From positions 1 through 64,000 of the IMG/VR virus record IMGVR_UViG_3300037423_000960: a DNA stretch of 64,000 bases, one strand, 5' to 3'. A program made the translations under genes and the position numbers. Positions 8,748 through 33,949 of this stretch are shown piece by piece (the stretch's first letter is position 1; the number at the start of each line of letters is the position of its first letter). Source of the DNA: a virus. Lineage: Duplodnaviria > Caudoviricetes. The notes under the pieces were generated by a model. That model ran no database searches and was not told the DNA's origin. It saw only the letters and a program-made list of their open reading frames with translations.

Positions 8748-8915
8748 ATGGCTGTTGAGATGACTAATGTCTCCATCTTTACTGTGAAGTATCTCGATCC
8801 AGACGGCATCCAGAGGTTCGTAGATCTTCAGGCTGTCGGCAGCTCGGACGCGCAGGATAAGTTTGCGCGCGAGTATCGGGGCTGCTCGATCGTGAACGTC
8901 TACCGTAAACAGTAA
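8748..8915 (+). CDS. Small hypothetical protein (55 aa), not in the ORF track
   Basis: AGGAG RBS; ATG 8748 to TAA 8915; MAVEMTNVSIFTVKYLDPDG... Confidence 0.55.
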   Translation: MAVEMTNVSIFTVKYLDPDGIQRFVDLQAVGSSDAQDKFAREYRGCSIVNVYRKQ

Positions 8916-8964
8916 GACTGTTCTCGTGAGCGTAGCCGTGCTACCCAGAGCGCGGAGGTGTGCT

Positions 8965-9501
8965 ATGACCTATCTACGACTCGCAGCGCTTGGTCTAATG
9001 CTCTCGGTCGGCTCTTGTGCTGGTGGGGACGCTCTCACTGCAAAGCCTGTCCAGTGTCCGGACGGATATCAGCGGAAGGGAAATAAGTGCGTCAAGGTGC
9101 CTGCACCGACACCTGTTCCTGAGCCTACGCCTACTCCGACTCCAGAGCCTGCGCCGACGCCTGTGCCAGAGCCGACACCTACTCCGACTCCAGAACCTAC
9201 GCCGACGCCGAGTGGTAATTGGGTCTCTGCTCCGATGCAGTTTGACGGCTACGCGCGCCTCAAAGTTCAGGCGAAGGGTTGGCCGAAGCCGACAGGCACG
9301 GCGAATCTATCGTCCTACGACTACACGAACATTTACCGAACAGCTCCGTCTGGCGAAGTTTTCCGCGTAATCTCTAACGCTGGTTTCTACGCGGACAACA
9401 CTGGTCGTAAATTCTGGCCTGTGATCTCTCTCACCAATCTTGGGGAGATTCTCTTCTTCTACGACGACGAGCTCGAGGGTGTAACGAAAGCTACTCCGTA
9501 A
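8965..9501 (+). CDS. Predicted lipoprotein with a Pro/Thr-rich linker
   Basis: GGAGGT RBS; signal peptide ending VGSC (lipobox-like); [16 protein letters not shown] repeats. Confidence 0.7.
9100..9210 (+). repeat. 48-nt tandem repeat (2+ copies) encoding [16 protein letters not shown]
   Basis: Two near-identical units plus a partial third, read directly from the sequence. Confidence 0.85.
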
Positions 9502-10304
9502 TGGGAAGACCTCCTGCGAAGACTAGAACTTTCCGCTTCTGTCCTTCTTGCGGGACTGATCTCGAGTCGTTAGAGCCGATACGCTTCAAGGATCTCTACG
9601 CGGATCCGTTAGGAGACACTTACTGGAGGGGGCGGGAAGTATCTCTCACTCCGACCGAGCGTATCTTAGTCAACACTCTTCTGACGGGTCAGCCCTCGGG
9701 CGGATACAAGAGAGGACGCGGAGATCGAGGCTTCTTCGTGAACTCGATCGTTCTGTGTGAGAGGGCCGGAATCCTAGCGGATAGTTTGGCCCCGATGCTT
9801 TCTAGAATTCGTGGGAAGTTCAAGCAGGTAGATCCTGACTTTGATCATATAGAGTCGGACTACAAGCACGGATATCGCTGGTCAGAGATTCACATTAAGC
9901 GACAGATAGCTGCCTTCTATCCCAACTTCGTACTGTACGACAATCAGGAACTCATCTGGCGACAGGTCTATCGCGTCCATCTCAGCGCTAAGGAGAGCGA
10001 GGTGATGCGAGTTCTGATGGAAGCCAAAGGCGAGCCGAGAAGATGGCAGCAGTTAGATGCCGAGTTAGGTTTCGGAGAAGATAACACGAAGAAATTGGTC
10101 TATCTACTTCGTGCCAAGTTCGAGAAGACAGATCCCAGCGCTAAGGCGATACATAGTCATCGAAATGAAGGCTACCGACTAGTCGCTCCTAATTTCCAGC
10201 CTGCCTTAACAGCTCGTCAGCACAGCTGCCGCAGAGGACAGCTAGCGCGGAGAAGTCCCACCTTGCAGCGTGAGACCGATGCTGCTAAGGTTGGCAAGCG
10301 TTAA
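9501..10304 (+). CDS. Transcriptional regulator: CxxC knuckle plus two OmpR/PhoB-type (ChvI-like) winged-helix domains, no receiver domain
   Basis: WRGREVSLTPTE...RIRGKFKQVDPDFDHIESDYKHGYRW and VHLSAKE...LRAKFEKTDPSAKAIHSHRNEGYRL. Confidence 0.75.
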   Translation: MGRPPAKTRTFRFCPSCGTDLESLEPIRFKDLYADPLGDTYWRGREVSLTPTERILVNTLLTGQPSGGYKRGRGDRGFFVNSIVLCERAGILADSLAPMLSRIRGKFKQVDPDFDHIESDYKHGYRWSEIHIKRQIAAFYPNFVLYDNQELIWRQVYRVHLSAKESEVMRVLMEAKGEPRRWQQLDAELGFGEDNTKKLVYLLRAKFEKTDPSAKAIHSHRNEGYRLVAPNFQPALTARQHSCRRGQLARRSPTLQRETDAAKVGKR

Positions 10305-10314
10305 CAAGGCGAGG

Positions 10315-10578
10315 ATGCCCGTTTACGTGGATCAGGCCGAGAACGGCTTCGGAAGAATGAAGATGTGTCACATGATAGCTGACACGTTGGAGGAACTTCA
10401 CGCCATGGCCGAGAGAATCGGCATGAGACGTGAGTGGTTCCAGCCCAAGTCGTTCCCTCACTACGACGTCGCGAAGGGTAGACGCCAGCAGGCGATCAGT
10501 CTCGGAGCTATCGTCTGCGATCGTAGAACCTTCGTAGGGCATCTCAGGAGGATACGAACGAGTGCTAACCTGGGATAA
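10315..10578 (+). CDS. DUF4031-family protein
   Basis: MPVYVD...MCHMIADTLEELHAMAERIGMRREWFQ...PHYD signature. Confidence 0.8.
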   Translation: MPVYVDQAENGFGRMKMCHMIADTLEELHAMAERIGMRREWFQPKSFPHYDVAKGRRQQAISLGAIVCDRRTFVGHLRRIRTSANLG

Positions 10579-10924
10579 GCGTAAGCTCAAGAATCCAGAG
10601 CCCTGCAAGGAGTGTCCCTTCAGAAAGAAGTCTCTACCTGGATTCCTCGGCGGTCACCCGTTGGAGCCGTATCGCCAGCCTCCAAGTGTAGGGATGCCCA
10701 CGAGTTGCCATTGTACGGATCATGGTGCAGACGACGAGAGGACCGGTTTCTGCGCGGGATCTTTAGCTGTGATTGCTAATGATCCCGATGTTCAACCTCT
10801 TCTCGAGTATAAGGAAGCCTGCGAAAGAGTCGGCCCACGTGAGGATTGCTTCGACTCTTTAGAAGACTTTGCACGATATCACGAAGGTGCCGACGAGTTC
10901 GCCGCCCGCTGTAGGAGATTTTAA
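10562..10924 (+). CDS. Cys-rich hypothetical protein (DUF6283-like)
   Basis: PCKECPFRK...CH...CAG motif. Confidence 0.6.
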   Translation: MLTWDKRKLKNPEPCKECPFRKKSLPGFLGGHPLEPYRQPPSVGMPTSCHCTDHGADDERTGFCAGSLAVIANDPDVQPLLEYKEACERVGPREDCFDSLEDFARYHEGADEFAARCRRF

Positions 10925-10926
10925 GA

Positions 10927-11193
10927 ATGCGGAGTACTTTCCTAGTTGTCTTGGGACTACTGTCAGGGTATCCCACAATGGCGGCGGCGGCGCAGGACAG
11001 TCTCACTCTTCGTGAGGAATGTACTCGCGATCGCTGCGTCTACTACCACGGCTCCACGAGGGAGTTCTCGGTAGAGAAGGAGTATCAAACCGATCGTCTC
11101 GTGGTACGGAATGGACAGCGAGATATCGTAGCGAAGATTACGAGGCAAGACAATGGAACTGTCAAAGTTGAGAGAGCTCGTCGGCGACGGTAA
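10927..11193 (+). CDS. Small secreted protein
   Basis: N-terminal signal peptide MRSTFLVVLGLLSGYPTMAAAAQ. Confidence 0.55.
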   Translation: MRSTFLVVLGLLSGYPTMAAAAQDSLTLREECTRDRCVYYHGSTREFSVEKEYQTDRLVVRNGQRDIVAKITRQDNGTVKVERARRRR

Positions 11194-11416
11194 GATCGCT
11201 GCGGTGACATTCATCAAGCGATCGAATGGGGAGGAGCGAAAGATGCTCTGCCGCACCGGCGTCAAGAAGGGCGTGACAGGTCGCGGTGCTGCCTACGATC
11301 CAGCCACCAAGAATCTGCTGACCGTCTTCGACATGGAGAAGCAGGCGTTCCGCACAATCCCGGCCGAGAATGTCGTGGAGATCCATGCGCGGAAACATCA
11401 CTACAACTTCAGGTAG
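11153..11416 (+). CDS. SH3/Sm-like beta-barrel protein (WYL_2/DUF2693-like)
   Basis: VTFIKRSNGEERKMLCR...LLTVFDMEKQAFRTI motif. Confidence 0.7.
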   Translation: MELSKLRELVGDGKIAAVTFIKRSNGEERKMLCRTGVKKGVTGRGAAYDPATKNLLTVFDMEKQAFRTIPAENVVEIHARKHHYNFR

Positions 11417-11503
11417 GCTGCTGATGCTTGCTCAAGGAGGCGGGGCAGGCTACATAGGGGCTAGGGCGCAACCGCGCCCCTCTTGCTGCTTGCCGCACAA
11501 GAT

Positions 11504-11547
11504 GAGACCCGCCGACACGGCCCTCGACCTCCTGGTCGGCGGGTCTC
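11504..11547. other. Perfect 13-bp inverted repeat (intergenic hairpin)
   Basis: GAGACCCGCCGAC / GTCGGCGGGTCTC with an 18-nt loop; no U-tract follows. Confidence 0.7.
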
Positions 11548-11563
11548 TAAATAGGAAGTTATC

Positions 11564-11860
11564 TTGCGAGCAATTCTGATAAACCCCGACTTCTCCAAGA
11601 TCGACGAGATTGAGGTAACTCTAGAAGGCGAACTTCCCATCTATCAGAGTGAGACCTATGCGCCTCACTGGATAGTCTCACAGACCTTACAGGGCCACGT
11701 CGGTCTAGTGAGTGAGAATGGAATCGTCGAGAAGAAACGCCTCTGGTATTTTCGCAATGTCCACATCTGGGGGCCGATGCTGATCGTCGGAGAATCTTCG
11801 CAGGGCTACGCAGACGCTTCTGTGAGCGTCGAGAAGGTGCGGGGCCTAGTGCGGCTGTAG
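11564..11860 (+). CDS. Hypothetical protein
   Basis: TTG start with AGGA RBS; last plus-strand gene before the convergence point. Confidence 0.55.
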   Translation: MRAILINPDFSKIDEIEVTLEGELPIYQSETYAPHWIVSQTLQGHVGLVSENGIVEKKRLWYFRNVHIWGPMLIVGESSQGYADASVSVEKVRGLVRL

Positions 11861-21312: not shown

Positions 21313-21807
21313 CTAGAAGTTCTCCGCCTTCTGTGGCCCATCCTCAGGAACCGTAGGCCAGACGTACGGAAGATCAGGCGGCTCGGTCCAGTCGAACTGA
21401 CCGTAGTGTGTAGGATCCTTCCGTAGAAGGTTGCTGCGATGACTGGCGTGAAAAGCCTCGTCGCCGAGCCACGGCGGCATGGAAATACTCCACTCAGCAT
21501 TACCGATATCGTCTGACAGAAACTCCATCGTGTTGTTGTACCCGCGACGCACCCACTCGTAGATCATGCTCATCTGATAGAGAGCTAAGGCATGTTCGTA
21601 GCCTCGCCACATCTTCGCGGCAGGATGATTCTTCCATCCTGCTCTAGAATGAACCACCGGAATGATACGTGAGATTTGACCCCGGAGTACTTCAAAACCG
21701 AGAGCAGATAGAAGCTGCTTACACTCTACGCGCTGCTTCCCGAGACGGCGATAGTCTAAGACCTTAGCCGACTCAACGAAGCTAGGGTAAGGGAGAAAAG
21801 TCTGCAT
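21313..21807 (-). CDS. MSMEG_6728 / pyrimidine-dimer glycosylase (DenV-like) family protein
   Basis: MQTFLPYPSF...LDYRRLGKQRVE...HPAAKMWRGY...HRSNLLRKDP...LPYVWP signature. Confidence 0.8.
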   Translation of the reverse strand: MQTFLPYPSFVESAKVLDYRRLGKQRVECKQLLSALGFEVLRGQISRIIPVVHSRAGWKNHPAAKMWRGYEHALALYQMSMIYEWVRRGYNNTMEFLSDDIGNAEWSISMPPWLGDEAFHASHRSNLLRKDPTHYGQFDWTEPPDLPYVWPTVPEDGPQKAENF

Positions 21808-22642
21808 GAGCCTCCTTGTAGGGTCGCACCCATTCGGGGAACTTCTTAAGCATACTAGCAAAGGTAAGCTCTTCCAGCAAGCCGCGGACTGCGCCTTCGT
21901 CAAACGTACCCATGCGGGTTCTCAGTCCTGGAATCTCGCGGATGTCGCGAAGCTCGATGAGTGCCTTGTTTCGCAGATAGAGCTCGTCTCCAGAGAAGAA
22001 GCGATCCAGGCGTTCCTGCTTCGTAGGACCAACGCTCATGCCCATGAGGTACTTCTTGATCGTGAGCTCTCCGACACCGTCGATGCCATCAACGCAGTCC
22101 ACGCCGTCGCCGATAGCGCAGAGTCCCTTTACGAATTCGTCAGGACTACTCCACCCGGTGATCTCTGCAAAGTTATCCACCGTGACCAGCTTCTTCTCGG
22201 CCTTGCGACCTTCCTGCTTGCAGCGATAGTAGATAGAGATTCCAGGTCGCACTAGCTGGAGCCAGTCTTTATCGTTACTGACGAGAATGGCGTGGTCCAG
22301 AGTGTTTGCCAGCATGGCTCCGATGTCGTCCGCCTCGAAGCCCTCGGCGTGAAGCTGGTCGGCTCCTACAGCTTCGAGGAAATTCTCGACTTGTTGAAGC
22401 ATGATGCGTTTAGCGTCATTCATAGACGAGGGGCGATCACCCTTGTAGCCAGGATGAATCGTCGTGCGACGCTCGCTCCCGCGATCCCAGCATACGAAGA
22501 TGCCGCGAGGGCCGAACTTCTTCACGGCAGATGTGAGTTGCGTCACGAAGCTGTACGTGTAGCCATTCGTTAGAAACGCCGCCGGTCCTGCGACGGAGTG
22601 AAAAACGGACAGCCCGTCGACTATAAGCGCTGGTCTCTGCAT
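21782..22642 (-). CDS. 5'-3' exonuclease / flap endonuclease
   Basis: LIVDG, WD, YKGDR, FEADDIGA, SNDKDWLQ and GDGVD motifs. Confidence 0.88.
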   Translation of the reverse strand: MQRPALIVDGLSVFHSVAGPAAFLTNGYTYSFVTQLTSAVKKFGPRGIFVCWDRGSERRTTIHPGYKGDRPSSMNDAKRIMLQQVENFLEAVGADQLHAEGFEADDIGAMLANTLDHAILVSNDKDWLQLVRPGISIYYRCKQEGRKAEKKLVTVDNFAEITGWSSPDEFVKGLCAIGDGVDCVDGIDGVGELTIKKYLMGMSVGPTKQERLDRFFSGDELYLRNKALIELRDIREIPGLRTRMGTFDEGAVRGLLEELTFASMLKKFPEWVRPYKEAHADFSPLP

Positions 22643-22693: not shown

Positions 22694-23197
22694 CTAGCGC
22701 CCGCTGCTACCAAAGCCGCCGGAGCCTCTCTGACTGTCCTCGAGGCTCTTGGACTCTGTGAAGTGGGTGCGTACCGTTGGCCGCATTACAGCCTGTGCCA
22801 CCCGGTCTCCCGGTGCAATGGTTTGGGTGGCCTCGGTGACGTTCATGAGAATCACGCACCACTCTCCGCGATAGTCTGCGTCGATCACGCCGGTGAGTAC
22901 GACCAGACCTTTGAGAGCCATGCCGCTGCGAGACTCGATGCGACAGTGAATGTCCGGGTGCATCTCTGTGGCGAATCCGAGAGGAATCTTAGCAATGCGC
23001 CCAGGACCGAGCACACAACGATAGATCGCCGTAAGATCATATCCAGCAGCACTGAGAGAACCTCGCTGCGGAATCTTTGCGTCTGGATGTAGCCGCTGGA
23101 ACTTCGTCGGATAGCTGGTGAAGTCGCTAGGCACGACATCCAAGTCTACGATGTGCGGCTCAGAATTCCCAGTATTTTCTCTAGTGCTAGCACCCAT
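22694..23197 (-). CDS. dut: Trimeric dUTPase
   Basis: AGYDL, RSG, GVIDADYRGE, DRVAQ and RGSGGFGSSG motifs; ATG overlaps the Pol stop (TGATG). Confidence 0.92.
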   Translation of the reverse strand: MGASTRENTGNSEPHIVDLDVVPSDFTSYPTKFQRLHPDAKIPQRGSLSAAGYDLTAIYRCVLGPGRIAKIPLGFATEMHPDIHCRIESRSGMALKGLVVLTGVIDADYRGEWCVILMNVTEATQTIAPGDRVAQAVMRPTVRTHFTESKSLEDSQRGSGGFGSSGR

Positions 23198-25176
23198 CAC
23201 AGTTCTCCCGTCAGAAACTTTTCGTAGTTCTCTGCGCCCTGCTTCTCCATAGAAGCTTCGCCCCAAGTGCGGCCACTGGCGACGTCGATCTTAATGGGGA
23301 TGGTTAGCTCCATGGCGCTCTCCATGATCTCCTGAGCCAAGTTCACGGTCTTGACGCTTGCAGAGCTGATGTCGATCTCGTCGTGAACTGTGCCGTGAGG
23401 AAGAATACCTGAGCGGTACATCTCGCGCAGCGCCATCTTTGTCATGTCTGCGGCGCTTCCCTGGATAAGACGATTCAGTGCCTTGTTGAGAAACTTGTAA
23501 GTACGCCCGTCGTCCTCTTTCGGGAAACGGAATCGTCGTCCCACTGGAGTCTTAATGTAACCCTTCTGCTTGACAGCGTTCTGGGCCTTGCGAGCAAGCT
23601 GGCGAATGAATGGAGCCTGCTCGTCGAAGACAGCCATCAACTCCTGAGCCTCGGGGCCAGCCTTGAGATATTTGAACTCCTGATCACCCTTCATGAAGGA
23701 AGCCTCGGTGTACGGTAGACCGAGCGATAATGCCAGCTTTCCGCCGCCCATCCCGTAGGCCACGCCCAGATTGATAATCTTCGCTGGTTTGCGCTTCTTG
23801 GGATCCTTCCAGTCCTCCAGGACTGTGGCGACCATCTTGCGGGTTTCGTCGTGCAGGTCGGTACGCGGATTGGCTCTAAATCGATCAGCCATCTCGCGAG
23901 CCTTCATGCAGCCCGTGATCTCGGCAAAGTGAACTGTCAGACGAGGCTCTTGCGAAGAGTAGTCCATCACATGGAAGAACTCACCCTCCTCAGGAAGAAT
24001 CATGCTGCGAACCATTAAGCCTAGCTCAGGATCCTTGTCTGGCGAGGGAAAATTCTGGAAATTCGGCTGAGAAGAACTGAACCGCCCTGACAGCGCTCCG
24101 CGAACACCAGCCTTCAGCTCCTTACCGAGAACTCCTCCGCTGTCGTCGTCACGCTTGAGGGGATTGAAGTTCGGGAAGATGCGTCCGCCTTCCTGGAGGT
24201 AGAGCAGATTGTTCTCGAGAAACGTGGATCTAATGTTGTTCGTCTTGCGGCCGCGAAGAATAGCGTTTGCAACTGGATGGGATAGAGATCGTAGCCAGTC
24301 TGCCGTGATACTCGGCTGCTCGGTCTTCTCGGTGAGGCCGTACTTAATGCTGAGCTTGTCAAATATTCGCGAGAGTTCTGCGGCATTGTCCCAGCTTCCT
24401 ACAGTGATCCCAGTCTTATCCTTGATAAACCGTCTGGCGAGATCTTCTTCGTGAACTAACTTGCGCTGCTGAATCTCGATGCCCGGAACGTCGACACGAA
24501 CTCCGCGCATCCGCATATCTACGAGCATTGGGATAAGATCACACTCGAGCTCGTAGACTTTCTGGAGCTCCTGTTCCTCCATGATGGGATTGTAGAAGTC
24601 CCACAGAAGTCGAGTGATTGCGACGTCCTCACGACCGTAGATACCTACGACGTCGGGATGCACCCTCATGAGATGCATCTTGATGTTGTCAGCCTTCGTG
24701 TTCTTCACACCGAGTTTCTTAGCTGCCTCAGCTAATGCGCGCTCGTCCTTACCACGTCCCACGAGGTCTTTGGCTAACCGATCTAGCTGATAGTTCGGAC
24801 GATGCTCGTCCACGAGCGGAGCCTGAAACGAGACATCCTCTATGCGACCTGAGATCTTAATTCCCTCAGCACGAAACCAACCGACGTCGTACTGTGCGTG
24901 GAAGAAGATCTTAGGTTGAGAATCGTCCTTCGTCAACTGACTACTCAGCCAGCTCTTCACCTTCACGGGATCTAGATTTCCCTCAGTGTGCCCGATGGGT
25001 AGATACTCGTGGAAGTTTTCAGCGTGAACTGCGATGCCGATTATCTTCCCGCCGTTCTGACCCTCGCGAGAATAGGACCAGCCGGAGCCTCTCGTCTTCA
25101 GGAGAGGATCGTGAGTTTCTGAGTCTAGGGTAATCGGACCGTGAAGCTCGGGAAGATCCGAGAACATGTCTAGCAT
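23197..25176 (-). CDS. polA: DNA polymerase family A with 3'-5' exonuclease domain
   Basis: LDSET, FHAQYD, GRFSSSQPNFQN, DYSSQEPR, AKIINLGVAYG, NRLIQGSAAD and VHDEI motifs; start moved to ATG 25176 because a promoter overlaps the TTG at 25263. Confidence 0.92.
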   Translation of the reverse strand: MLDMFSDLPELHGPITLDSETHDPLLKTRGSGWSYSREGQNGGKIIGIAVHAENFHEYLPIGHTEGNLDPVKVKSWLSSQLTKDDSQPKIFFHAQYDVGWFRAEGIKISGRIEDVSFQAPLVDEHRPNYQLDRLAKDLVGRGKDERALAEAAKKLGVKNTKADNIKMHLMRVHPDVVGIYGREDVAITRLLWDFYNPIMEEQELQKVYELECDLIPMLVDMRMRGVRVDVPGIEIQQRKLVHEEDLARRFIKDKTGITVGSWDNAAELSRIFDKLSIKYGLTEKTEQPSITADWLRSLSHPVANAILRGRKTNNIRSTFLENNLLYLQEGGRIFPNFNPLKRDDDSGGVLGKELKAGVRGALSGRFSSSQPNFQNFPSPDKDPELGLMVRSMILPEEGEFFHVMDYSSQEPRLTVHFAEITGCMKAREMADRFRANPRTDLHDETRKMVATVLEDWKDPKKRKPAKIINLGVAYGMGGGKLALSLGLPYTEASFMKGDQEFKYLKAGPEAQELMAVFDEQAPFIRQLARKAQNAVKQKGYIKTPVGRRFRFPKEDDGRTYKFLNKALNRLIQGSAADMTKMALREMYRSGILPHGTVHDEIDISSASVKTVNLAQEIMESAMELTIPIKIDVASGRTWGEASMEKQGAENYEKFLTGEL

Positions 25177-25234
25177 TGACGTTGGCTTTCGCTTACTGCG
25201 ACTACCCTGTCTAACAGGGCCGTCCAGAAGCTCT

Positions 25235-25263
25235 TGTATAAAGCTGGTTTGTTCTGTTGACAA
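25235..25263 (-). promoter_or_regulatory. TTGTCA-class promoter for polA
   Basis: TTGTCA-N17-TATACA. Confidence 0.55.
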
Positions 25264-25264: not shown

Positions 25265-25753
25265 CTACGCGGCCAGTGCCTGAGCTTTCTCGAGAAGCGC
25301 GGACATATGCTTCCGCGCTAATTCTATGCCTAGCCGAGAGTCCCAAGTGCAGAGATGTGAGATAGCGAGTTGCTCGTCGGCGTCCGAGATGCCGTTCTGC
25401 TCAAAGAACATCTGGAGATCGCTGTAGGGAGCACGGCCAGTCGGCGCATAGTCGTACTGTACGATACACTCAAGAATCTTATCGCAGTAGTGGACGCCCT
25501 TCTGTAAATCCTCGACTCCGTTCTTCTTCCTCCAGCGTGAGGCATACTTAGAACCGCAGCTCTCGAGATAGCCGATGCGATTCTTGGCACACAGATCCCA
25601 GTGCTGAAACTTCGCACCCTTGTAGTGACTGCCTCCATGCTGGATGTCGTTGGCACTCGGTTGCTTCTTGCTTCCGGTGGAATGCTCGCAGTAGCCAAGA
25701 GTCTGCCCACAGACTGAACAGTTGCCCTCGCGACAGTTGTCGTAGTGTCCCAT
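25265..25753 (-). CDS. DUF3310-family protein
   Basis: ANDIQHGGSHYK...KYASRWRKKNGVEDLQKGVHY signature. Confidence 0.8.
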   Translation of the reverse strand: MGHYDNCREGNCSVCGQTLGYCEHSTGSKKQPSANDIQHGGSHYKGAKFQHWDLCAKNRIGYLESCGSKYASRWRKKNGVEDLQKGVHYCDKILECIVQYDYAPTGRAPYSDLQMFFEQNGISDADEQLAISHLCTWDSRLGIELARKHMSALLEKAQALAA

Positions 25754-26307
25754 CAGCTTCTAGCCTTTCTCCATTGACCGTCAAGATCTCTGCGCATGTT
25801 CGCGATGTTCGTCATGAGCCACGGAGACATAGTGACGAACTCAGCTCTGTAAAGTTCTAGTGTCTGAGTCATTTTGTCCCAGGCTCTCTTATAGTAGATC
25901 TCCGCGTAGCGATTGCCGAGCATCCTCTCATGGATCATACTGACGCAGAACTCAGCACGATCACACAGTTCGACGAGCCCCCACTCAGGATCAGTGAGAC
26001 CCTCTATCAAAGAGTAGAGAGCTTGAGGTAACGTGGTTCTCATGTGATCACGCTCAAGCTTGTCCATGAGAGTCTCCAGTACAGGATCGGACCACTTTGT
26101 CGGACCCGGCATATCTCCCGTAGCCTTCTCGCCGAAGTCATGGAGCTGAGCGGCTATGATAATCTCTCGCCGGGCATCAGGCCAGAGCATAAGAAGAAGG
26201 AGAACGACTCCCCACGTATGCTCGCTGATATTCTCAGCGTGGATGTTCTCCATCGTGTGCTTTCGCCGAACCTTTCCGGAGAGCCACGCGTCTACGAAGG
26301 AGATCAT
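25753..26307 (-). CDS. HD-domain deoxynucleotide phosphohydrolase (YfbR/DatZ-like)
   Basis: VRRKHT...ENISEHTW...LHD..E..TGDMP...K...CDRAE motifs. Confidence 0.85.
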   Translation of the reverse strand: MISFVDAWLSGKVRRKHTMENIHAENISEHTWGVVLLLLMLWPDARREIIIAAQLHDFGEKATGDMPGPTKWSDPVLETLMDKLERDHMRTTLPQALYSLIEGLTDPEWGLVELCDRAEFCVSMIHERMLGNRYAEIYYKRAWDKMTQTLELYRAEFVTMSPWLMTNIANMRRDLDGQWRKARS

Positions 26308-27341
26308 CTTGCGAGAGCTTTCCTCTGAGCCTTCACCTGCTTATCCATCAACCAGTTCACGCAGGCCAGTCGCAAGGATTCTGACTCACACGTTCGCAAG
26401 ATCTCCATGGCAAGATCTATGCGAACTTCTATAGGAGTATCTATGCCTGTGAGACTCTTCAGCTTGTATATCCTGTAAGCCTCGCAAATCGGTCTCACTA
26501 CGCGGCCGAGATAAGAACTCAATTTACCGACGGGAATCTCGCCTCCGTTGACGAATTCTGCTAGAATCTTCATATCGAGAGTGAGACCGTGTTCCGTTAG
26601 ACTGTAGTCTGCCTTCTGAGAGGCGAAGTTCTTAAACTCGTCCATGTGCTCCCAGCAGCGCTGGGAGGTCTCGTTCTCAAGGTAGAGGTGCATGTTCTTG
26701 GAGATCTGGTAGTAGGTGCCGACCTCGAGACCTGCGTGATAGGCGATGTACTCATGCAGAAGTGAGAAGTGAACGAGATTACTACCCATAGCTCCGTAGA
26801 CGAGGTCGTTGCTGCGATTAGTCACCGTCATGTCAAGAAGATAGCCGCCCTCTCTCGGACGGGTGTCGAACAAGACCTGCTGGTTGCAGGCGAAGTCACG
26901 TCCCTGATCCTTCACTAGCTCTTGGGAGTCCCAGATCTGAAGAACGATACGACGATCCTCTGGATTACTTCGTAGTTTCTGCACAACTCTCGCGAGTTGA
27001 TCGAAGTGGAAGTGTCTGCGCCAACGGAAGCCGTACGGAGCCGCGAAAGTCACTCCGTCGTCAGAGTAATTCTTCATGCCGCTGTTGTAGAGATTCAGAG
27101 GCGCTACGGTGTCTAGGCCGGCGAACATCCACATCGTCTCGAAGAGATGGAAGAAGTGATTCGCGTCCCGCACAGGATGGTCGAGAAGTCTCCTGCGAGG
27201 ATTGACGTACTCTAGACACACCGGCTTCGGGAACCGAATGACAGGACCGTTACGACTGTCGGTCTTGATTCCCTCCGACTTGAGAGCTTGCATCACACGA
27301 CCGAAGCCCTCGTTGGGGCAGTCTATCTCGAAGCTATACAT
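26304..27341 (-). CDS. Thymidylate-synthase-fold enzyme, probable dUMP hydroxymethylase
   Basis: RRIVLQIWD, FACN, RSNDLVYGAMGSN (Asn at the dUMP-specificity position), NMHLY; divergent from ThyA and set in a modification cluster. Confidence 0.8.
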   Translation of the reverse strand: MYSFEIDCPNEGFGRVMQALKSEGIKTDSRNGPVIRFPKPVCLEYVNPRRRLLDHPVRDANHFFHLFETMWMFAGLDTVAPLNLYNSGMKNYSDDGVTFAAPYGFRWRRHFHFDQLARVVQKLRSNPEDRRIVLQIWDSQELVKDQGRDFACNQQVLFDTRPREGGYLLDMTVTNRSNDLVYGAMGSNLVHFSLLHEYIAYHAGLEVGTYYQISKNMHLYLENETSQRCWEHMDEFKNFASQKADYSLTEHGLTLDMKILAEFVNGGEIPVGKLSSYLGRVVRPICEAYRIYKLKSLTGIDTPIEVRIDLAMEILRTCESESLRLACVNWLMDKQVKAQRKALAR

Positions 27342-27567
27342 TCTCAGTCTCTTCCTGATACATGCCGATGAGATTACCGTGTCCGTCTGACTGCCCGTCC
27401 AGATGATGGCGACCGCGAGAACACACGACGTAATACCCCTCGCGGTCTCTAAAGACCTTCCGCAGAGAGTTTTTCTTCATGCAGTCAAAGTCTCCGTCGA
27501 CGCGGATGTAGGAGCCTGCCTTGATCTCAGCCAGACGGGCGTACCTGCGACCTTGCTTATCTCTCAC
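27334..27567 (-). CDS. Small hypothetical protein
   Basis: 77-aa ORF coupled between the glycosyltransferase and TS-fold genes. Confidence 0.55.
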   Translation of the reverse strand: MRDKQGRRYARLAEIKAGSYIRVDGDFDCMKKNSLRKVFRDREGYYVVCSRGRHHLDGQSDGHGNLIGMYQEETENV

Positions 27568-28376
27568 GCACCCCTCCGGAAGCTAGGATTGATGAACTCA
27601 CGACCGCGGGTTTGGTACGCTTTCTTCCACTGGACGCGCACGTCCTTGCGTGTTCCCGAAAAGCCGCCGCTGCCCGTCTTGGGTGTCTTTTCTACGACTT
27701 TGACGACTTTCGGGTGGAGCTCCGCAAGACGCTCAGCCGCCGCCGCTTGAGTCTCGCTAGTTCGGTAGTGGCTGAAGCCTCCAGGAGCTCCTGATCCCTT
27801 GCACTGATCCCAGGCGGCATCCGTAATGACGGCGTTTTTCTCACCTTTCTCAAAAAGCGAAAGAACGACATGGTAGTCCTCCATCATGTCAACGTCGTCG
27901 TAGCGAATGCCGTAGTGCCGCAGCGCCTCAGGTAAGACGCAGTGGACCGCGTTCATGCGCTCCACAGTGAGCGTCGTAGCAGGATACGCCCAATTATTTC
28001 CCTGCCTAGGCGATAATCCTGAATGGACGTAATCGTTGTGAGCCACGAGAATATGAAGTCTCGAAAAGATACGCTCCACGTCGGCACCGGCGGGACGTAG
28101 ATTGTGCGCGGATGGATCCTTGCGAACGAAAAACGCTAGATCGTCGTCTAGCATGATGACCGGCTCACCCTGTCTAGCAAGCTCGTCGACAATCCATTGC
28201 CGCACCGCAGCCAGCCCTACCGGGGGCCGCGCCACTGCGTTTCGAGAGCGCTCGAGATGCTCGGTGACCTCCTCCGCGGGGCATACCAGCGTTGTGCATT
28301 GCCGCAGAGCCGGCGTCAGGTTGTCCCATGTAAATTGAGCGTTGACACGATCACGCGTCGGGATGAAGATCTGCAT
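27564..28376 (-). CDS. GT-A fold glycosyltransferase (TAGT / GREB1-like)
   Basis: IFIPTRDR, RQWI, IMLDDDL (DxD), EDYHVVLSL..G and GAPGG motifs. Confidence 0.75.
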   Translation of the reverse strand: MQIFIPTRDRVNAQFTWDNLTPALRQCTTLVCPAEEVTEHLERSRNAVARPPVGLAAVRQWIVDELARQGEPVIMLDDDLAFFVRKDPSAHNLRPAGADVERIFSRLHILVAHNDYVHSGLSPRQGNNWAYPATTLTVERMNAVHCVLPEALRHYGIRYDDVDMMEDYHVVLSLFEKGEKNAVITDAAWDQCKGSGAPGGFSHYRTSETQAAAAERLAELHPKVVKVVEKTPKTGSGGFSGTRKDVRVQWKKAYQTRGREFINPSFRRGA

Positions 28377-28641
28377 TCTTAATTCCTTCTATGCGAGTAA
28401 TGCCATGACGGTGAAGGACTACGACAACGTCTTCCTCCATGGCGTCTATCTCGATCTCGTAGCCGATCATCTCCACGTCAAGGCGCAGAATGGGAAATCT
28501 CGAGGCTCCCATGGAGAACTCGGCATCCGTGAGATGAAGTTTGTTGACGAATTTACCACTCTCGTCTCTACCGACGAGAAGCTCCCCGTCCCGTCCCTCG
28601 AGATGTATGTCGCGTTGTCCGGGGCCTAATCTGAGCTTCAC
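28351..28641 (-). CDS. Hypothetical protein
   Basis: GTG start with GGAGG RBS; 96 aa. Confidence 0.55.
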   Translation of the reverse strand: MKLRLGPGQRDIHLEGRDGELLVGRDESGKFVNKLHLTDAEFSMGASRFPILRLDVEMIGYEIEIDAMEEDVVVVLHRHGITRIEGIKNADLHPDA

Positions 28642-28683
28642 ACCTGCCTCCTGCTGAGTAGCTATCTTATAGCAAGCCGTTTC

Positions 28684-29577
28684 TCAGGGGACTATAGGCT
28701 TTGCCTTACGCCAGTCGTAGCCGGAGCGTGGACGACCCTCGCCATTCTTCACACGGAGATACTTGTCCAGTTCGCACAGAGAGAACTGAACATCGGTGAC
28801 TCCGTAGTGAACACCAATCTCAGGCATGTAGTCCTTGAACGCACGATCCATGCTGAGACGACCGAGAAGAGCCTGCATCTTGTGCTGAGCCCTCTGCTGA
28901 GGCATCCCGGCCTGCGTCGGACGATCGTGAAGACGATTGAGACCGCGGATAGCTCCGGGGCCAGCCGGTGACCACGTCAGCTTGTCGGTAGCATTCTCGA
29001 GCACAGGCGTCAGCATCATGTCCAGTGCGATCTCCTTCGCCATGAAGGGACCAATTCCGGGCATTCCCTGCAAGAGCTCACAGACCTCCTGCCACCGATT
29101 CGTGCGCTCAGCCATGCCGATGACAGAGTCCAGACGCATCCGAAACGGAGTGAGAAACTGCGACACGACGACGATCTGCTTAGGATCTGTGCTGCCCGCG
29201 TTCGTTATGATGTACGCTCCGGTGAAGACTTTCTTCCCGGCAGCGAGACGCTCGCCGGCGCGACGTATGAGAAAATCTGGGTTCCACTCGTATTGAAAAC
29301 CAACGTCTTCTAGAAACTCAATGCTGCCGAAGTAACGCGCGATGGCACAGTTGAGTGCCATGACTTGTTTCGGAACATTTCCACGATTAGGATTATACCA
29401 ATTCCGGATCAGCCACTGCGTAGTGCGATCGTGCTTGCGGAGAATATTTGTGAACTTGTAGCGCGAGAGAATTGGATCTGTGGTCCAGGGACCTGGCTCA
29501 CCTGCAACTCTCTTCTGCCGGATAGCTTCGCGCTCGTTCAGGTAGTGAACGAAAGTCTCGTAGATCTCTTGGTTCAT
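28684..29577 (-). CDS. aGPT-Pplase1 / 5-hmdU-DNA-kinase helical-domain family protein (HhH-glycosylase-like fold)
   Basis: EREAIRQKR..G..GPWTTDPIL..YKFTNI.R..DR, GPGAIRGL and LCELDKYLR...GRPR motifs; no Walker A seen. Confidence 0.82.
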   Translation of the reverse strand: MNQEIYETFVHYLNEREAIRQKRVAGEPGPWTTDPILSRYKFTNILRKHDRTTQWLIRNWYNPNRGNVPKQVMALNCAIARYFGSIEFLEDVGFQYEWNPDFLIRRAGERLAAGKKVFTGAYIITNAGSTDPKQIVVVSQFLTPFRMRLDSVIGMAERTNRWQEVCELLQGMPGIGPFMAKEIALDMMLTPVLENATDKLTWSPAGPGAIRGLNRLHDRPTQAGMPQQRAQHKMQALLGRLSMDRAFKDYMPEIGVHYGVTDVQFSLCELDKYLRVKNGEGRPRSGYDWRKAKPIVP

Positions 29578-30333: not shown

Positions 30334-31197
30334 CTAGAACGCCTGCTCGTCTCCGGGCTCGTCGTCGGGATGCTCCATGTCACCCTTGACTTCGCCGGCA
30401 TCGATCCGCTTACGCAGCTCGCTGGCGGCAGTGAAAATCTCGCGCCCGTTTGCGAGATCCTTCACCTTCGGCCCCTCCTCGATGAGGAACCCGTACCACG
30501 AACCCTTGTCGTTGGACTCTGGAATCGTGGTAATCTTGTACGAGTAGAACCACATCGCAGGACGGAAGAGAGTCCCGGCCTTGGCGTGGCCTACCGGAAA
30601 TCGCTCCATGCGATTGTTGATCGTGGTTGCCCACCCGCGACCCTTGCGAGCCTGAACCCCAGAGAAGTTCAGAACCGCTGCCTCCCATTCCTGCGTCTCC
30701 GGATTCACCAGGACGACGAAGTACTGAAGAGCATCGGTGAGCTCATTGCCCTGCTCGTCGTAGCGCTTACCCTTGTCGTCCGGCGTCGCCGCGTTGAACT
30801 TCGAGGGATCGTCACCCATGTCGTAGGCAGGACCGGCGTTATTCGGTCGCCACGCCATGTATCGGTGACTAAAGCCGACCGGAACGGCGAGAAAACCCGT
30901 CTCGCCGTTGATGAGCTTCCGCGTCGCAGAGTTGACGAACATGCCCTGACCGGCGTTAGGAAGAAACTTAGCGTGACCACGCTGAAGCTCCTTCGAGAGC
31001 GCTTGCAGGATGCGGACATACGGGATGAGAAAGTCGGACTGCTGGAAATCGTCCAGACCCGCACCGGCTTCTGCGAAGAAGTCGTCGTCCGCCGCAACCA
31101 AATCGGTTGACTCGTTCTTGGTCGTTGTGAGATTGGTACCGCCAGCCGCAGGTGCCTCACTCTTTTCTTCTTCAGCTTTCTTCTTTGCTTCGGCCAT
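30334..31197 (-). CDS. Probable single-stranded DNA-binding protein
   Basis: SDFLIPYVRILQALS motif, acidic C-terminus ending in F, replication-cluster position. Confidence 0.6.
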   Translation of the reverse strand: MAEAKKKAEEEKSEAPAAGGTNLTTTKNESTDLVAADDDFFAEAGAGLDDFQQSDFLIPYVRILQALSKELQRGHAKFLPNAGQGMFVNSATRKLINGETGFLAVPVGFSHRYMAWRPNNAGPAYDMGDDPSKFNAATPDDKGKRYDEQGNELTDALQYFVVLVNPETQEWEAAVLNFSGVQARKGRGWATTINNRMERFPVGHAKAGTLFRPAMWFYSYKITTIPESNDKGSWYGFLIEEGPKVKDLANGREIFTAASELRKRIDAGEVKGDMEHPDDEPGDEQAF

Positions 31198-31237
31198 TAG
31201 GCTCTCCTCTGTTCACTGGCTTGCCACCAGACGCTTC

Positions 31238-31265
31238 ACTATAAGCGCGTTAACTCACAACGCAA
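31238..31265 (-). promoter_or_regulatory. Sigma70-type promoter TTGCGT-N16-TATAGT
   Basis: Intergenic, with AT-rich upstream sequence, preceding the SSB-like gene. Confidence 0.55.
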
Positions 31266-31297
31266 GGGATATTTTACTCTAGAATAACTCGGCAGAC

Positions 31298-31864
31298 TTA
31301 CTTAATGACTGCCTTATCGCCAAACCAGACTCCCCACTTCTCAAGTGGGAGCATGACGCCATTCTGAATCTGCTCGCGCGCGAATGCCATAAAGGTTTGA
31401 GGGTGCACGTCCAGCTTGATGGTAGGGTCGAAGCCCATCTTGGCGAGCGTTTCACGTGCTAACTCGGCCTGCTTCGTGTCACCCTTGCTGAACTGAAGGG
31501 CTAGATTACGCTTGATAATATCGCTATGTCCGTGCGAGTCGAGCCACTCGTAGGCTTGCTCCTTGGACTGTGGCGGAATTGATCCGACGACGTATTTGGT
31601 TGAGACCTTGAGACCCTCCAGCGTAGTGATCTCGCGGACGCCTGCCTGCTTCAGCAACTCGGGCAACTTCTGTGTCTCTATCTCGACCTTCCGGCGAGTG
31701 AGATCTTTGATTTTATTCTGTAGCTCGGCGATGTCTCCCTCGAGAAGACGATACTCTCTCGCGAGATTGGTAATATGAGCCTTAAAGCGCTCAGAGCCGG
31801 TACTGGTGTCGGCCTCCTCGAAGAAGTCTACGTCACTCTGCTCCGTCTGCGTCTCTTCGACCAT
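31298..31864 (-). CDS. Conserved phage replication-module protein
   Basis: Coiled coil then LPELL..AGV..ITT..G, WL..HGH.DIIK and VHPQT motifs. Confidence 0.7.
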   Translation of the reverse strand: MVEETQTEQSDVDFFEEADTSTGSERFKAHITNLAREYRLLEGDIAELQNKIKDLTRRKVEIETQKLPELLKQAGVREITTLEGLKVSTKYVVGSIPPQSKEQAYEWLDSHGHSDIIKRNLALQFSKGDTKQAELARETLAKMGFDPTIKLDVHPQTFMAFAREQIQNGVMLPLEKWGVWFGDKAVIK

Positions 31865-32223
31865 TAGTCTTGTTCCTCTTCCAGCCTGACTTCTACGGGA
31901 GAATAGAAACCCGTTACGGGTTCTCCATGCTTTGTATTGCGGTTTTTCTCAAAGCGCAAGTAGCGGAACTTCGTGATACCTAGGTCAAGCATCACCATGC
32001 CGGTCACAATGGCGCTGAGAGGATCTCCACCCGCCCAGACGATGAAGTCCGTTCGGGGATCAAACTCCGAGAGTGCTCTCCTGAGACGCTCTATGGAGAG
32101 CTCAGGATTAGCCGAGGTCCGATCTCCAGCAGAGAGCACAAAGCGGATCTCGCCATATACGGCGGCGGGGCTGACGTCGGGCTGAAACCGGACGGCCTGT
32201 AGGACAAAGACCTTACTCGTCAT
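31864..32223 (-). CDS. Conserved hypothetical alpha/beta protein
   Basis: ATG at 32223; YGEIRFV...DFIVWAGGDP motif. Confidence 0.65.
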   Translation of the reverse strand: MTSKVFVLQAVRFQPDVSPAAVYGEIRFVLSAGDRTSANPELSIERLRRALSEFDPRTDFIVWAGGDPLSAIVTGMVMLDLGITKFRYLRFEKNRNTKHGEPVTGFYSPVEVRLEEEQD

Positions 32224-33949
32224 CGGCAAAGAGATCCCTTATGTCAATTAGATTCTCGGCGATCGCGCCCTTGGACTTGAGTACCTTGTCGATTCTCTCG
32301 TCCACCGAGCGCGGGGTGATAAGATAGTGATAGTTCACGGGAAAGTGTTGTCCGATGCGATGGCATCTGTCGTTGGCTTGCAGTTCGTTCTCAAGGGAGA
32401 AGTCTCGGCTGTACCAAATGACCTCGCTGGCGACAGTCAGGTTGAGACCAATACCCCCGGACTTAGGAGTGGAGAGAAAGACCTTGATATTGTCGTCTGT
32501 CTGAAACTTCTTAAGATTCGTCAACTTGTCTTTGGTCCGACCAACGTAGTCTATCCAGGAGATGCCAGCCTCGGTTAGTGCCTTGCTCAGAAGACGATAG
32601 TCACCCTCGAACTTAATCCAGACGATAACCTTCCCGCGAGCTTCCTTGATAATCTCTACGGTGCGCTCCACTCGACGATTCGGGAACTCCTGATACAGTT
32701 CAGGATCAACTATCTTTCCGTTCTCGTCCTTCTTCGCTCTCTTGTGGATGAACCCACCTATGAGTTGCTGAAGACGAATGAGACGAGTGATGGCGAGACG
32801 CGCGGTGAGAATACCGGCGTCAAGGTCGAGGAAGAAGTCCTTCTTCATCTGAGCATATACGCGACTCTGCTCTTCAGTGAACGGAACTTCTACACGAATG
32901 AAGTTCTTGGCAGGAAGATCCAGGCAATCCTCCTTGAGAACTCGGTACGTGTACGAGTCGATCTTGCGTTTAAGTTCTTCCTCATTTACGTAACCGACGA
33001 TCTTCTTGTTCTGAAAACCGCCCATGCGACAGAAGTGATTCCGGAAGGCGTAGAAACTGCTGTAGCCCAGGATATGAGGGTCCAGGAAGTAGAACTGTGA
33101 ATAAAGATCCTCCACGCCCTGGGAGATTGGAGTTCCTGTGAGAATGCGTCGATACTTGGCTAGCTTACCTAGCTTCAGAAGAGTCTTAGTTCTCTTTGAG
33201 CTGGAGTCTTTTATGCGGCTACTCTCGTCCACGACCAGCATGGCTCTAGAAGAGAGAAGAAGCTCTTGCAGGAGCTCCTCACCGCTCTTGTGACTCATCA
33301 TGTCGATGTGGATTGCAATGATCCTGAGACCATCCTTAAAATACCGCGCTTTGGACAGTCGGAGAGCCTCTTCATGGGTTGGGGCTGCAACGGTGTACCC
33401 GCCCGCCCAAGGCACAGAGGGGCTTAAATGTTCCGGAACTTGTTCGTTTATCCACTGAGCATGGACGCCGTTGGGGGCGACGATCAATAACGTGTCGATC
33501 TTGCCGTTCTCACCACCGTTGAGAAAAATGTCGGCGGCGTCGTCCAACAGGGTCTTGGTCTTTCCGGTGCCCTGCTCCATGAAGTACCCGAAGGCGATCT
33601 TCCCTCTGGCGAGAATGTTAGCCTTGAGTTGATGCTGATAGGGCTTGTGCTTATACGGGAACTCGAAGCCAACAGGCTCAATCCACTTTGCGTTACGAGT
33701 CTCACGCTCCTGCTCGCGCATACGCCGAAATTGTTCCACCAGTGTAGCAGCGGGGCCGCGCCAAGTGACGCCCTCTAGACGCGTGTCGAGGAACTCTAGA
33801 TTGCTCCTCGAAAGCTCAATGAAAGGCTTACCCTGTACGTACCGCTTGCGGCCTGGAAGCTCTGAGAGAGCGTTAAAGACGTGCGGTGGAACCCGACCGT
33901 CTAGCCACGCTTTCTTCTCGTCTGACTCAAAGACAACTTGTATCGTCAC
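32213..33949 (-). CDS. SNF2-family (SF2) helicase
   Basis: FMEQGTGKT, VVDESS, LTGTP, GGIGLNL and QANDRCHRIGQ motifs; GTG at 33949 overlaps the upstream TGA. Confidence 0.9.
   Translation of the reverse strand: MTIQVVFESDEKKAWLDGRVPPHVFNALSELPGRKRYVQGKPFIELSRSNLEFLDTRLEGVTWRGPAATLVEQFRRMREQERETRNAKWIEPVGFEFPYKHKPYQHQLKANILARGKIAFGYFMEQGTGKTKTLLDDAADIFLNGGENGKIDTLLIVAPNGVHAQWINEQVPEHLSPSVPWAGGYTVAAPTHEEALRLSKARYFKDGLRIIAIHIDMMSHKSGEELLQELLLSSRAMLVVDESSRIKDSSSKRTKTLLKLGKLAKYRRILTGTPISQGVEDLYSQFYFLDPHILGYSSFYAFRNHFCRMGGFQNKKIVGYVNEEELKRKIDSYTYRVLKEDCLDLPAKNFIRVEVPFTEEQSRVYAQMKKDFFLDLDAGILTARLAITRLIRLQQLIGGFIHKRAKKDENGKIVDPELYQEFPNRRVERTVEIIKEARGKVIVWIKFEGDYRLLSKALTEAGISWIDYVGRTKDKLTNLKKFQTDDNIKVFLSTPKSGGIGLNLTVASEVIWYSRDFSLENELQANDRCHRIGQHFPVNYHYLITPRSVDERIDKVLKSKGAIAENLIDIRDLFADDE

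Follow-up and report, generated by a model that had tools for sequence, protein, structure and literature searches.

Known thymine-hypermodifying phages need a DNA kinase, and the question raised by the present locus is how its modification genes could work where no such kinase is found. The window (64,000 nucleotides of viral DNA) carries at 26304-29577, on the minus strand, a contiguous block of five ORFs whose starts and stops overlap or abut, all of them present and correctly placed in the first-pass annotation. Families were assigned by Pfam scans of ~68 ORFs of the window and contig together with PHROG matches, the absence of enzymes was assessed by six-frame HMM searches over the whole 73.5-kb contig, and the locus was surveyed by tblastn across 80 related viral loci carrying a relative of its glycosyltransferase (GT). 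The contig is a fragment with a CheckV completeness of 68%, or ~80% when measured against a collinear relative, 91.9 kb long and bounded by terminal repeats of 127 bp; the ~18.5 kb absent from it contain, as seen in that relative, small ORFs only, with no Pfam family. We propose, with a probability of about 0.55, a two-stage replacement of thymine in which 5-hydroxymethyl-dU (5hmdU) would enter the DNA at replication and receive a sugar there afterwards, with an aGPT-Pplase1 protein (Pplase1) as a working partner. A glycosyl-oxymethyl-dU made via the thymidylate synthase (TS) route is the most economical reading of the locus.

The first stage would depend on the TS homolog (345 aa, minus strand, 26304..27341), which matches PF00303 at 5e-20 (72 bits; cut-off 24.3) and phrog_5131 at 3e-93, and whose closest solved structure is the CMP hydroxymethylase MilA (6e-20). 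In the alignment its residues D149, C152, D179 and N188 occupy positions 143, 146, 169 and 177 of E. coli ThyA, C152 coinciding with the catalytic Cys and N188 with N177, where MilA carries Asp. This L143D/C146/D169/N177 signature is identical in all four residues in 78/78 aligned homologs, M6 gp58 included. According to the residue rules described for these positions (PMC13326640), Asn at 177 marks uracil and not cytosine as the substrate, an acidic residue at 143 leads to a hydroxymethyl rather than a methyl product, and retention of Asp at 169 indicates that the enzyme is not a 5-hydroxy-dCMP synthase. The earlier claim that the Asn at the substrate-specificity position points to dUMP and not dCMP is thus borne out, and the protein is predicted to be a dUMP hydroxymethylase yielding 5hmdUMP. 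The DNA of M6 has been shown to be built via 5hmdU (PMC8989533).

The same strand carries further nucleotide-metabolism genes beside the block. A dUTPase (22694..23266; PF00692 at 7e-29) and a family-A DNA polymerase, PolA (23197..25263; 33% identical to M6 gp62, 2e-89), both occupy equivalent positions in relatives. A 162-aa DUF3310 protein resembling T7 gp1.7 (25265..25753) matches phrog_5839 at 9e-28, the 'nucleotide kinase' phrog_236 at 7e-15 and M6 gp61 at 1e-15, its score against the DUF3310 profile being 22 bits, just under the cut-off of 24. An HD-domain YfbR-like 5'-deoxynucleotidase (25753..26307; PF12917 at 1e-11, M6 gp59 homolog at 4e-15) adjoins the TS gene in relatives as well. 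Judging by the family signatures of these proteins and their M6 orthologs, the dUTPase would supply dUMP, the TS homolog would turn it into 5hmdUMP, and the HD nucleotidase would clear competing dNMPs, depleting dTMP and the other canonical ones. The DUF3310 protein is a candidate kinase for 5hmdUMP, which together with host kinases would take it to the triphosphate, and PolA would then place 5hmdU instead of T.

Pplase1 (297 aa, minus strand, 28684..29577) was rightly assigned by the first-pass annotation to the aGPT-Pplase1/HMUDK family, with PF18723 matching at 1e-45 (156 bits; cut-off 25); it is a stand-alone protein with no P-loop kinase domain, 34% identical to M6 gp55. The family is now named HMUDK_hel in Pfam. 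C268-E269, D186 and a GPGAxRG motif are invariant across 31 homologs and are also kept in M6, Pam3, PhiJL001, LuckyBarnes and phiRSL1. The AF2 model (pLDDT 95) shows a helix-hairpin-helix glycosylase-like fold, with Z scores of 8-10 to OGG and Mag glycosylases and a top match to 8z2n_B, PaMx11 gp46, at Z 11.5, which is moderate for an all-helical protein. PaMx11 gp46 is a 5-PmdU glycinyltransferase using Cys247 and Asp175 (PMC11472151). Given the invariance of C268-E269 and D186 and the top fold match to this Cys/Asp enzyme, Pplase1 is probably an enzyme, and the role of passive reader or base-flipping partner, as first suggested, becomes less likely. The same active-site residues are found in phages of the kinase type and of the GT type, which makes 5hmdU-DNA itself the most likely substrate.

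Displacement of phosphate had been put forward as the known chemistry of this family. It does occur within the family, but in M6, ViI and PaMx11 it is carried out by clade-2 enzymes (ADDT, PF18724) and not by clade 1, whose member M6 gp55 is dispensable in vitro (PMC8989533). Pplase1 has a motif resembling the region around C247 of M6 gp51, the comparison of the two proteins by hhalign is not significant, and the ADDT HMM gives a hit, sub-threshold at 7.8e-4, to just one of the Pplase1 proteins, the PhiJL001 ortholog. Clade-2 enzymes require 5-PmdU, and we know of no precedent in the aGPT-Pplase family for a Cys enzyme eliminating an unactivated hydroxyl. Being a homolog of the amino-acid:DNA transferases, with a Cys and an Asp that probably correspond to theirs, Pplase1 probably extrudes 5hmdU from the helix for an attack on C6 that requires no phosphate; it could process unglycosylated 5hmdU, for instance to T or to another adduct, or could instead present the base to the GT. 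We tentatively consider, as a less probable extension, that it is a kinase-independent Cys enzyme acting on 5hmdU and common to all post-replicative 5hmdU modifiers, which together with the GT would produce a mosaic genome of glycosyl-hmU and T; here it might convert leftover 5hmdU to thymine or, alternatively, set the sequence context of the modification. If true, a widespread clade would possess a 'phage base J' obtained through the thymidylate-synthase route.

It is doubtful that Pplase1 is instead the primary transferase, forming a kinase-free C6 adduct and an exocyclic methylene to which a small hydroxyl-bearing nucleophile is added before the GT glycosylates the adduct. The invariant Cys and Asp, the ADDT-like fold and the tight linkage of Pplase1 and GT in two gene orders are in line with such a role, as is phage SP10, in which a clade-1 domain is fused to a kinase, no clade-2 protein is detected and glutamyl-thymine is made (table of PMC5889632); SP10 suggests that clade 1 can be a transferase, even though the M6 row of the same table conflicts with a later paper. 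However, no activating enzyme was found, the genome lacks a gene for the synthesis of a special nucleophile, M6 gp55 is dispensable for modification in vitro, and the arrangement GT-TS-HD exists without Pplase1 in MW202897. This last case also implies that the GT does not necessarily require Pplase1, in agreement with direct glycosylation of 5hmdU.

The kinase-dependent route was sought directly. In the 73.5-kb contig, six-frame HMM searches gave no match to the P-loop 5-hmdU DNA kinase (PF18748), to ADDT (PF18724), or to Radical_SAM, Tet_JBP and PALP, and the Pfam scans of the ~68 ORFs agree, finding no kinase, ADDT, PLP, radical-SAM or TET/JBP enzyme. The absence of P-loop DNA kinase, PLP, radical-SAM and TET/JBP enzymes, originally observed in the window, therefore extends to the whole contig, and both families of the canonical 5-HMUDK and ADDT pathway are missing. 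PF18748 was also absent from all 57 GT-carrying records searched, comprising this contig and 56 related ones: the 91.9-kb relative, two marine records at 100% and one at 82% completeness, the four named phages PhiJL001, LuckyBarnes, phiRSL1 and MW202897, and another 48 viral records, among which 12 have a completeness of at least 90%. PF18724 was absent from 9/9 GT-carrying records searched. In both searches the positive controls, M6 and Pam3, each scored for both families. Neither in the contig nor in the 56 related records is Pplase1 accompanied by, or fused to, the P-loop 5-hmdU DNA kinase, and a kinase and transferase lying beyond the window, as the first-pass annotation had envisaged, were found neither in the rest of the contig nor in complete relatives. 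It is thus unlikely that canonical phosphate displacement persists here, with an unrecognised phage or host kinase phosphorylating 5hmdU, Pplase1 displacing the phosphate and the GT acting as a secondary decorator. The incompleteness of the contig, its many ORFs without family and an APS-kinase-like gene beside the GT of phiRSL1 leave some room for this route; however, besides the missing kinase family, Walker A motifs are limited to the helicase, tail proteins and residue 90 of one 154-aa ORF, and homologs of M6 gp51-54 occur in 0/80 related loci.

The second stage of the proposed replacement would be carried out by the GT (270 aa, minus strand, 27564..28376). Its description as a TAGT-like GT-A enzyme with an MLDDDL motif is well founded: it matches PF20691 at 6e-12 (46.3 bits; cut-off 27.5) and phrog_842 at 2e-40, its DxD motif corresponds to D77-D78-D79, with DDD invariant in 32 homologs, and its AF2 model (pLDDT 93.5) adopts a GT-A fold, with Foldseek matches to the GT-A enzymes RmlT, TarP and TarS at 3e-6 to 2e-5 and probability 1.00. 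The typical partner of TAGT enzymes, a TET/JBP dioxygenase, was not found in the contig with the Tet_JBP HMM, the partner here being the TS homolog. To our knowledge all characterised phage GT-A enzymes act on cytosine derivatives. Enzymes of similar kind put sugars onto 5hmC in DNA (10.1101/2023.12.21.572611), and we predict from the family match and the model that the present GT is a DNA 5-hydroxymethyl-pyrimidine glycosyltransferase. It would glycosylate the 5-CH2OH group on DNA using a host NDP-sugar, giving a base-J-like 5-(glycosyloxymethyl)uracil without a DNA kinase or TET/JBP oxygenase.

The suggested survey of how often GT and Pplase1 co-occur revealed a frequent association, Pplase1 lying within the locus in 72/80 GT loci and TS in 76/80 by tblastn, in two gene orders and with GT identity down to 35%. 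That the GT acts on a protein or cell-envelope acceptor, the DNA carrying only 5hmdU or T derived via Pplase1, is very improbable: its top solved fold matches are wall-teichoic-acid glycosyltransferases and ~65% of phage GT contigs have no base-modification neighbour, but in 72-76 of the 80 loci it is embedded in a nucleotide-metabolism operon with Pplase1 on one side and TS on the other, it matches the TAGT family HMM, and experimentally verified DNA GT-A enzymes share TarP-type fold matches (10.1101/2023.12.21.572611). The two small ORFs, in contrast, are not conserved members of the cluster. The 96-aa ORF between Pplase1 and GT (28351..28641, minus strand) has no Pfam or PHROG family and no tblastn match in the 80 related loci, is missing in relatives where Pplase1 and GT abut, and probably lies outside the modification pathway because of this lack of conservation. 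The 77-aa ORF between GT and TS (27334..27567, minus strand) has no family above cut-off and is restricted to the closest relatives (4/80 loci, 47% identity).

The triad of Pplase1, GT and TS is found in three unrelated cultured phages, PhiJL001, LuckyBarnes (with two GTs) and phiRSL1 (with three GTs, NDP-sugar enzymes and a sulfotransferase). PhiJL001, a phage of Alphaproteobacteria (Keylargovirus, Mesyanzhinovviridae) reportedly sequenced in 2005, has a complete genome in which gp19, gp22 and gp24 belong to the same order of Pplase1, GT, TS and PolA as here, although identity to the present cluster is only 33-35%. It likewise has no kinase, its sub-threshold ADDT match of 7.8e-4 falls on the Pplase1 gene, an Nmad5 gene lies between GT and TS, alongside the GT, and we found no identification of its DNA modification in the literature. 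The co-location of Pplase1, GT and TS was noted in 2022 in HTVC023P-type pelagiphages as 'partner AMGs', with no chemistry given and no statement on the lack of a kinase (PMC9599517). Tara contigs carry the same gene set, and the marine versions have an extra radical-SAM/SPASM gene between GT and TS, so the end product of some lineages may go beyond a plain glycoside. The gene set is recurrent in many phages, and its DNA product is named in no publication found in our literature search. The cluster type itself, given the gene order of PhiJL001 and the pelagiphage co-location, is not unique to this phage.

Clusters of the M6/PaMx11/Pam3 type share with the present one a syntenic core of Pplase1, TS homolog, HD nucleotidase, DUF3310 protein and PolA, an identical TS signature, identical Pplase1 active-site residues and a 5hmdU precursor set before replication, as predicted here. 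They differ in having 5-HMUDK and ADDT together with PLP, rSAM or FAD enzymes, whereas here P-loop DNA kinase, ADDT, PLP and rSAM genes are absent and a TAGT GT lies between Pplase1 and TS, where M6 and Pam3 have Nmad5; the product is an amino-acid or amine adduct in those phages and a predicted sugar adduct here. The glycosylated cytosines of T-even phages and RB69 follow a common logic, in which a TS homolog gives a pre-replicative hydroxyl handle and GTs add sugars on DNA, but the TS homologs there have N177D, and also D169N where 5-hydroxy-dCMP is made, instead of N177 and D169, and we know of no Pplase1 partner reported in such phages. Base J of kinetoplastids (JBP1/2 and JGT) shares the predicted product class, a glycosylated 5-hydroxymethyluracil, and the fold of phage GT-A enzymes is similar to that of JGT (10.1101/2023.12.21.572611). 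In base J, however, the hydroxymethyl group arises by oxidation of T in DNA by a pathway with JBP and the base is placed at selected sites, whereas here, in a contig with no Tet_JBP gene, it would come from the TS homolog at the nucleotide level and the replacement is predicted to be genome-wide.

The phage can be placed by its sequence as one member of a widespread, kinase-less, predicted sugar-type branch of thymidine hypermodification. The contig is 73,472 bp long, the window being its initial 64 kb, and contains a single minus-strand operon at 22.7-29.6 kb. In order of transcription this encodes an aGPT-Pplase1/HMUDK_hel protein of 297 aa (Pplase1, PF18723; 28684-29577), a 96-aa ORF, a TAGT-family GT-A glycosyltransferase (GT, PF20691; 27564-28376), a 77-aa ORF, a thymidylate-synthase homolog (TS; 26304-27341), an HD YfbR-like 5'-deoxynucleotidase (25753-26307), a T7 gp1.7-like DUF3310 protein (25265-25753), PolA (23197-25263) and a dUTPase (22694-23266). 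The first-pass annotation had described the segment from Pplase1 to TS, and was right on every point as to its genes, coordinates and contents; the two small ORFs are however poorly conserved, the 96-aa ORF being detected by tblastn in 0 of 80 related loci and the 77-aa ORF in 4 of 80, and certain relatives have Pplase1, GT and TS directly adjoining, with no small ORFs between them. Megablast of the cluster region against phage records gave zero matches. Upstream of the cluster lie Pam3 gp32/gp33/gp34-like genes and then an SNF2 helicase (30334-32229, minus strand), a position kept in soil and marine relatives, and a T4 endonuclease V-like pyrimidine-dimer DNA glycosylase (21313-21903, minus strand; PF03013, 2e-23) also occupies the same position in relatives.

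To our knowledge, all thymidine hypermodification pathways solved to date proceed by way of a DNA kinase together with a transferase for an amino acid or amine. The whole contig, searched with HMMs in six frames, gave no match to the 5-hmdU DNA kinase (PF18748), to the clade-2 amino-acid:DNA transferase (ADDT, PF18724, formerly aGPT-Pplase2), or to Radical_SAM, Tet_JBP or PALP, and M6 gp51-54 used as tblastn queries found nothing in it; in the positive controls, M6 and Pam3, the same searches scored both the kinase and the ADDT families. Walker A motifs are confined to the helicase, the tail proteins and residue 90 of one 154-aa ORF. An upstream 215-aa protein, which sits at the position of the M6 kinase, was rejected as a kinase: it lacks a Walker A motif and resembles MarR-like winged-helix families only below threshold.

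At 68% by CheckV, the contig is incomplete. A 91,890-bp viral record bounded by 127-bp terminal repeats runs collinear with it at 67-87% nucleotide identity, and a segment of 18.5 kb of that record (52434-70963) falls between the two ends of the contig and is missing from it; the segment holds small ORFs without a Pfam family. Both PF18748 and PF18724 are absent by HMM from this entire relative, from two 100%-complete marine records and from the complete PhiJL001 genome, and PF18748 is absent from LuckyBarnes, phiRSL1 and MW202897 and from another 48 viral records carrying a GT, of which 12 have a completeness of 90% or more. The absence of a kinase, noticed in the window, extends, then, to the remainder of the contig and to complete relatives. 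Since the kinase is missing from these and from many GT-carrying records while the M6 and Pam3 controls score, its absence is, on sequence grounds, a trait of this cluster type and not an artefact of the contig break.

Homologs of the GT, with 35-89% identity, are frequent in metagenomes. As to how often GT and Pplase1 co-occur without a kinase, a question already raised in the first-pass annotation, Pplase1 is present in 72 and TS in 76 of 80 IMG/VR loci bearing a GT relative, PF18748 being absent from the GT-carrying records searched; eight loci have no Pplase1, and in five of these the GT lies at a contig edge. The gene order is GT-Pplase1-TS in 13 loci, as against Pplase1-GT-TS, and soil and Tara contigs, by their gene tables, have the same neighbourhood. 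Marine relatives (L007, L008, L010 and L011; Tara and other) have a radical-SAM/SPASM gene between GT and TS, at about 10770-11771, which hints that their base is elaborated further. The triad is also present in three unrelated cultured phages: PhiJL001, as gp19, gp22 and gp24, annotated since 2005 with a 'glucosyl transferase' and an SPO1-like hydroxymethylase; Brevibacterium phage LuckyBarnes, in the order TS, GT, GT, Pplase1; and the jumbo Ralstonia phage phiRSL1, where Pplase1 and TS stand beside three TAGT-like GTs (2681-11075). The same region of phiRSL1 encodes two sugar-nucleotide transferases, a galactose-3-O-sulfotransferase and an APS-kinase-like protein, a gene set suggesting that thymine may carry a sulfated glycan there. 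MW202897 has GT-TS-HD without Pplase1, and the GT is therefore not obligatorily dependent on Pplase1.

The substrate of TS can be judged from a few key residues, numbered as in E. coli ThyA. The catalytic residue is C146, uracil is selected by N177 and cytosine by N177D, an acidic residue in place of L143 accompanies hydroxymethylation, and D169N marks the 5-hydroxy-dCMP synthases (Lee et al. 2026, PMC13326640). The window TS has D149, C152, D179 and N188 at positions 143, 146, 169 and 177, in a register checked against MilA and the bacterial thymidylate synthase PDB 4h0r, and the identical D/C/D/N is found in 78 of 78 aligned homologs, including M6 gp58, PhiJL001 gp24 and TS genes adjoining GT relatives. 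On D169 and N177, a 5-hydroxy-dCMP synthase and a dCMP hydroxymethylase are rejected as readings. Since the signature is common to M6 gp58, and M6 DNA is built via 5hmdU (PMC8989533), signature and orthology together allow TS to be read as a putative dUMP hydroxymethylase. The phage, itself predicted to swap T for a uracil derivative, also encodes a 169-aa uracil-DNA glycosylase superfamily protein (1686-2195, plus strand; PF03167, 3e-9).

Pplase1 is all-helical, lacks a P-loop and matches the helical domain family only; the Pfam name '5-hmdU DNA kinase, helical domain' is misleading for it, and a reading as the kinase itself is rejected. M6 has gp54 as its kinase and the clade-2 gp51 as its transferase, and the clade-1 gp55, to which the window Pplase1 is 34% identical, was dispensable in the sole in-vitro reconstitution that omitted a clade-1 protein, its omission from the minimal reaction causing no loss (PMC8989533). 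C268-E269 (LCELDKY), D186 and a GPGAxRG segment are invariant across 31 Pplase1 homologs; M6 gp55 keeps 34 of 44 invariant residues, Pam3 gp50 33 and PhiJL001 gp19 35, all three retaining the Cys-Glu pair and the Asp. The best fold match of the AF2 model (pLDDT 95) is the 5-PmdU glycinyltransferase PaMx11 gp46 (Z 11.5, 224 residues aligned), followed by helix-hairpin-helix glycosylases (Z 8-10). In PaMx11 gp46, Cys247 attacks C6 and Asp175 contacts the base (PMC11472151), and the catalytic C247 of M6 gp51 has an ...E-x-x-L-C... context similar to that in Pplase1. By sequence, the ADDT profile matched the C-terminal half of PhiJL001 gp19 weakly (7.8e-4), hhalign of the Pplase1 profile with the single M6 gp51 sequence aligned, without significance, 32 columns at the helix-hairpin-helix motif only, and a search of solved structures gave no match.

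The first-pass interpretation, in which the GT would act on 5hmdU without a kinase, is reasonable; its view of Pplase1 as a base-flipping partner, reader or second-step transferase needs sharpening, since the fold match and the invariant Cys and Asp suggest that it is related to the DNA transferases and probably itself an active enzyme. The active site being the same in kinase-type and GT-type phages, the substrate is likely common to both and would be 5hmdU-DNA. Metagenome proteins in which the Pplase1 domain is fused to a family-A DNA polymerase (P0242, P0243) or to primase-helicase modules with PriCT_2, Prim-Pol and AAA_25 (e.g. P0241, P0247) point to action on replicating DNA; no fusion with a GT occurs among the 15 longer Pplase1 relatives found (P0241-P0255), which is weak evidence.

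Base J of kinetoplastids is a glycosylated hydroxymethyluracil. The GT model shows a GT-A fold (pLDDT 93.5) with RmlT, TarP and TarS as the nearest solved structures, and a sequence search of solved structures gave no match. Phage GT-A enzymes glycosylating 5hmC on DNA were compared by Pyle et al., citing the same TarP work, and their fold was also likened to the base-J glucosyltransferase (10.1101/2023.12.21.572611). As no sugar-nucleotide or linker biosynthesis genes are found in the genome, the donor is likely a host NDP-sugar, and a route of the SP-15 type, with a nucleotide-level linker to which sugars are then added, is not favoured; the dihydroxypentyl-dUTP of SP-15 is made before replication (work cited in PMC5977210).

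A stretch of 1,102 bp, from 63805 to 64000 in the window and on to contig position 64907, contains zero GA or TC dinucleotides on either strand, while their mean spacing across the genome is 6 bp and the second-longest gap is 54 bp. The 91,890-bp relative has a counterpart of 1,070 bp at 79743-80813. Such a stretch could mark a sequence context of the putative T modification.

The gene set itself has already been noticed. TS, aG/PT-PPlase1, 5'-deoxynucleotidase and this GT were found together in pelagiphages, and said to be a set that 'potentially broadens the functionality' (PMC9599517); GT-A enzymes with a thymidylate-synthase association were tallied by Pyle et al., who do not mention Pplase, and a T-dioxygenase study ties another clade to GTs (PMC13229309). 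Product and clade-1 enzyme are not characterised in the literature searched, in which we found no paper naming the base of these phages nor, by phrase searches, any phage paper on glycosylated 5hmU or thymidine. With carriers in culture, the nature of the base and the function of the clade-1 Pplase are directly testable, and both matter for how such DNA withstands restriction enzymes and DNA glycosylases and for the difficulty of sequencing such genomes; the enzymes may also serve for labelling 5hmU.

This cluster, with numerous relatives that are frequent in viromes from soil and the sea and occur in the three cultured phages, would represent a second, kinase-less branch beside the kinase/transferase pathways, in which the clade-1 Pplase, dispensable in M6 in vitro, is tightly linked to a glycosyltransferase. 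The oligosaccharide thymidines of SP-15, YerA41 and Carin-5, the sole such cases in the literature searched, differ in being borne on a pentyl linker.
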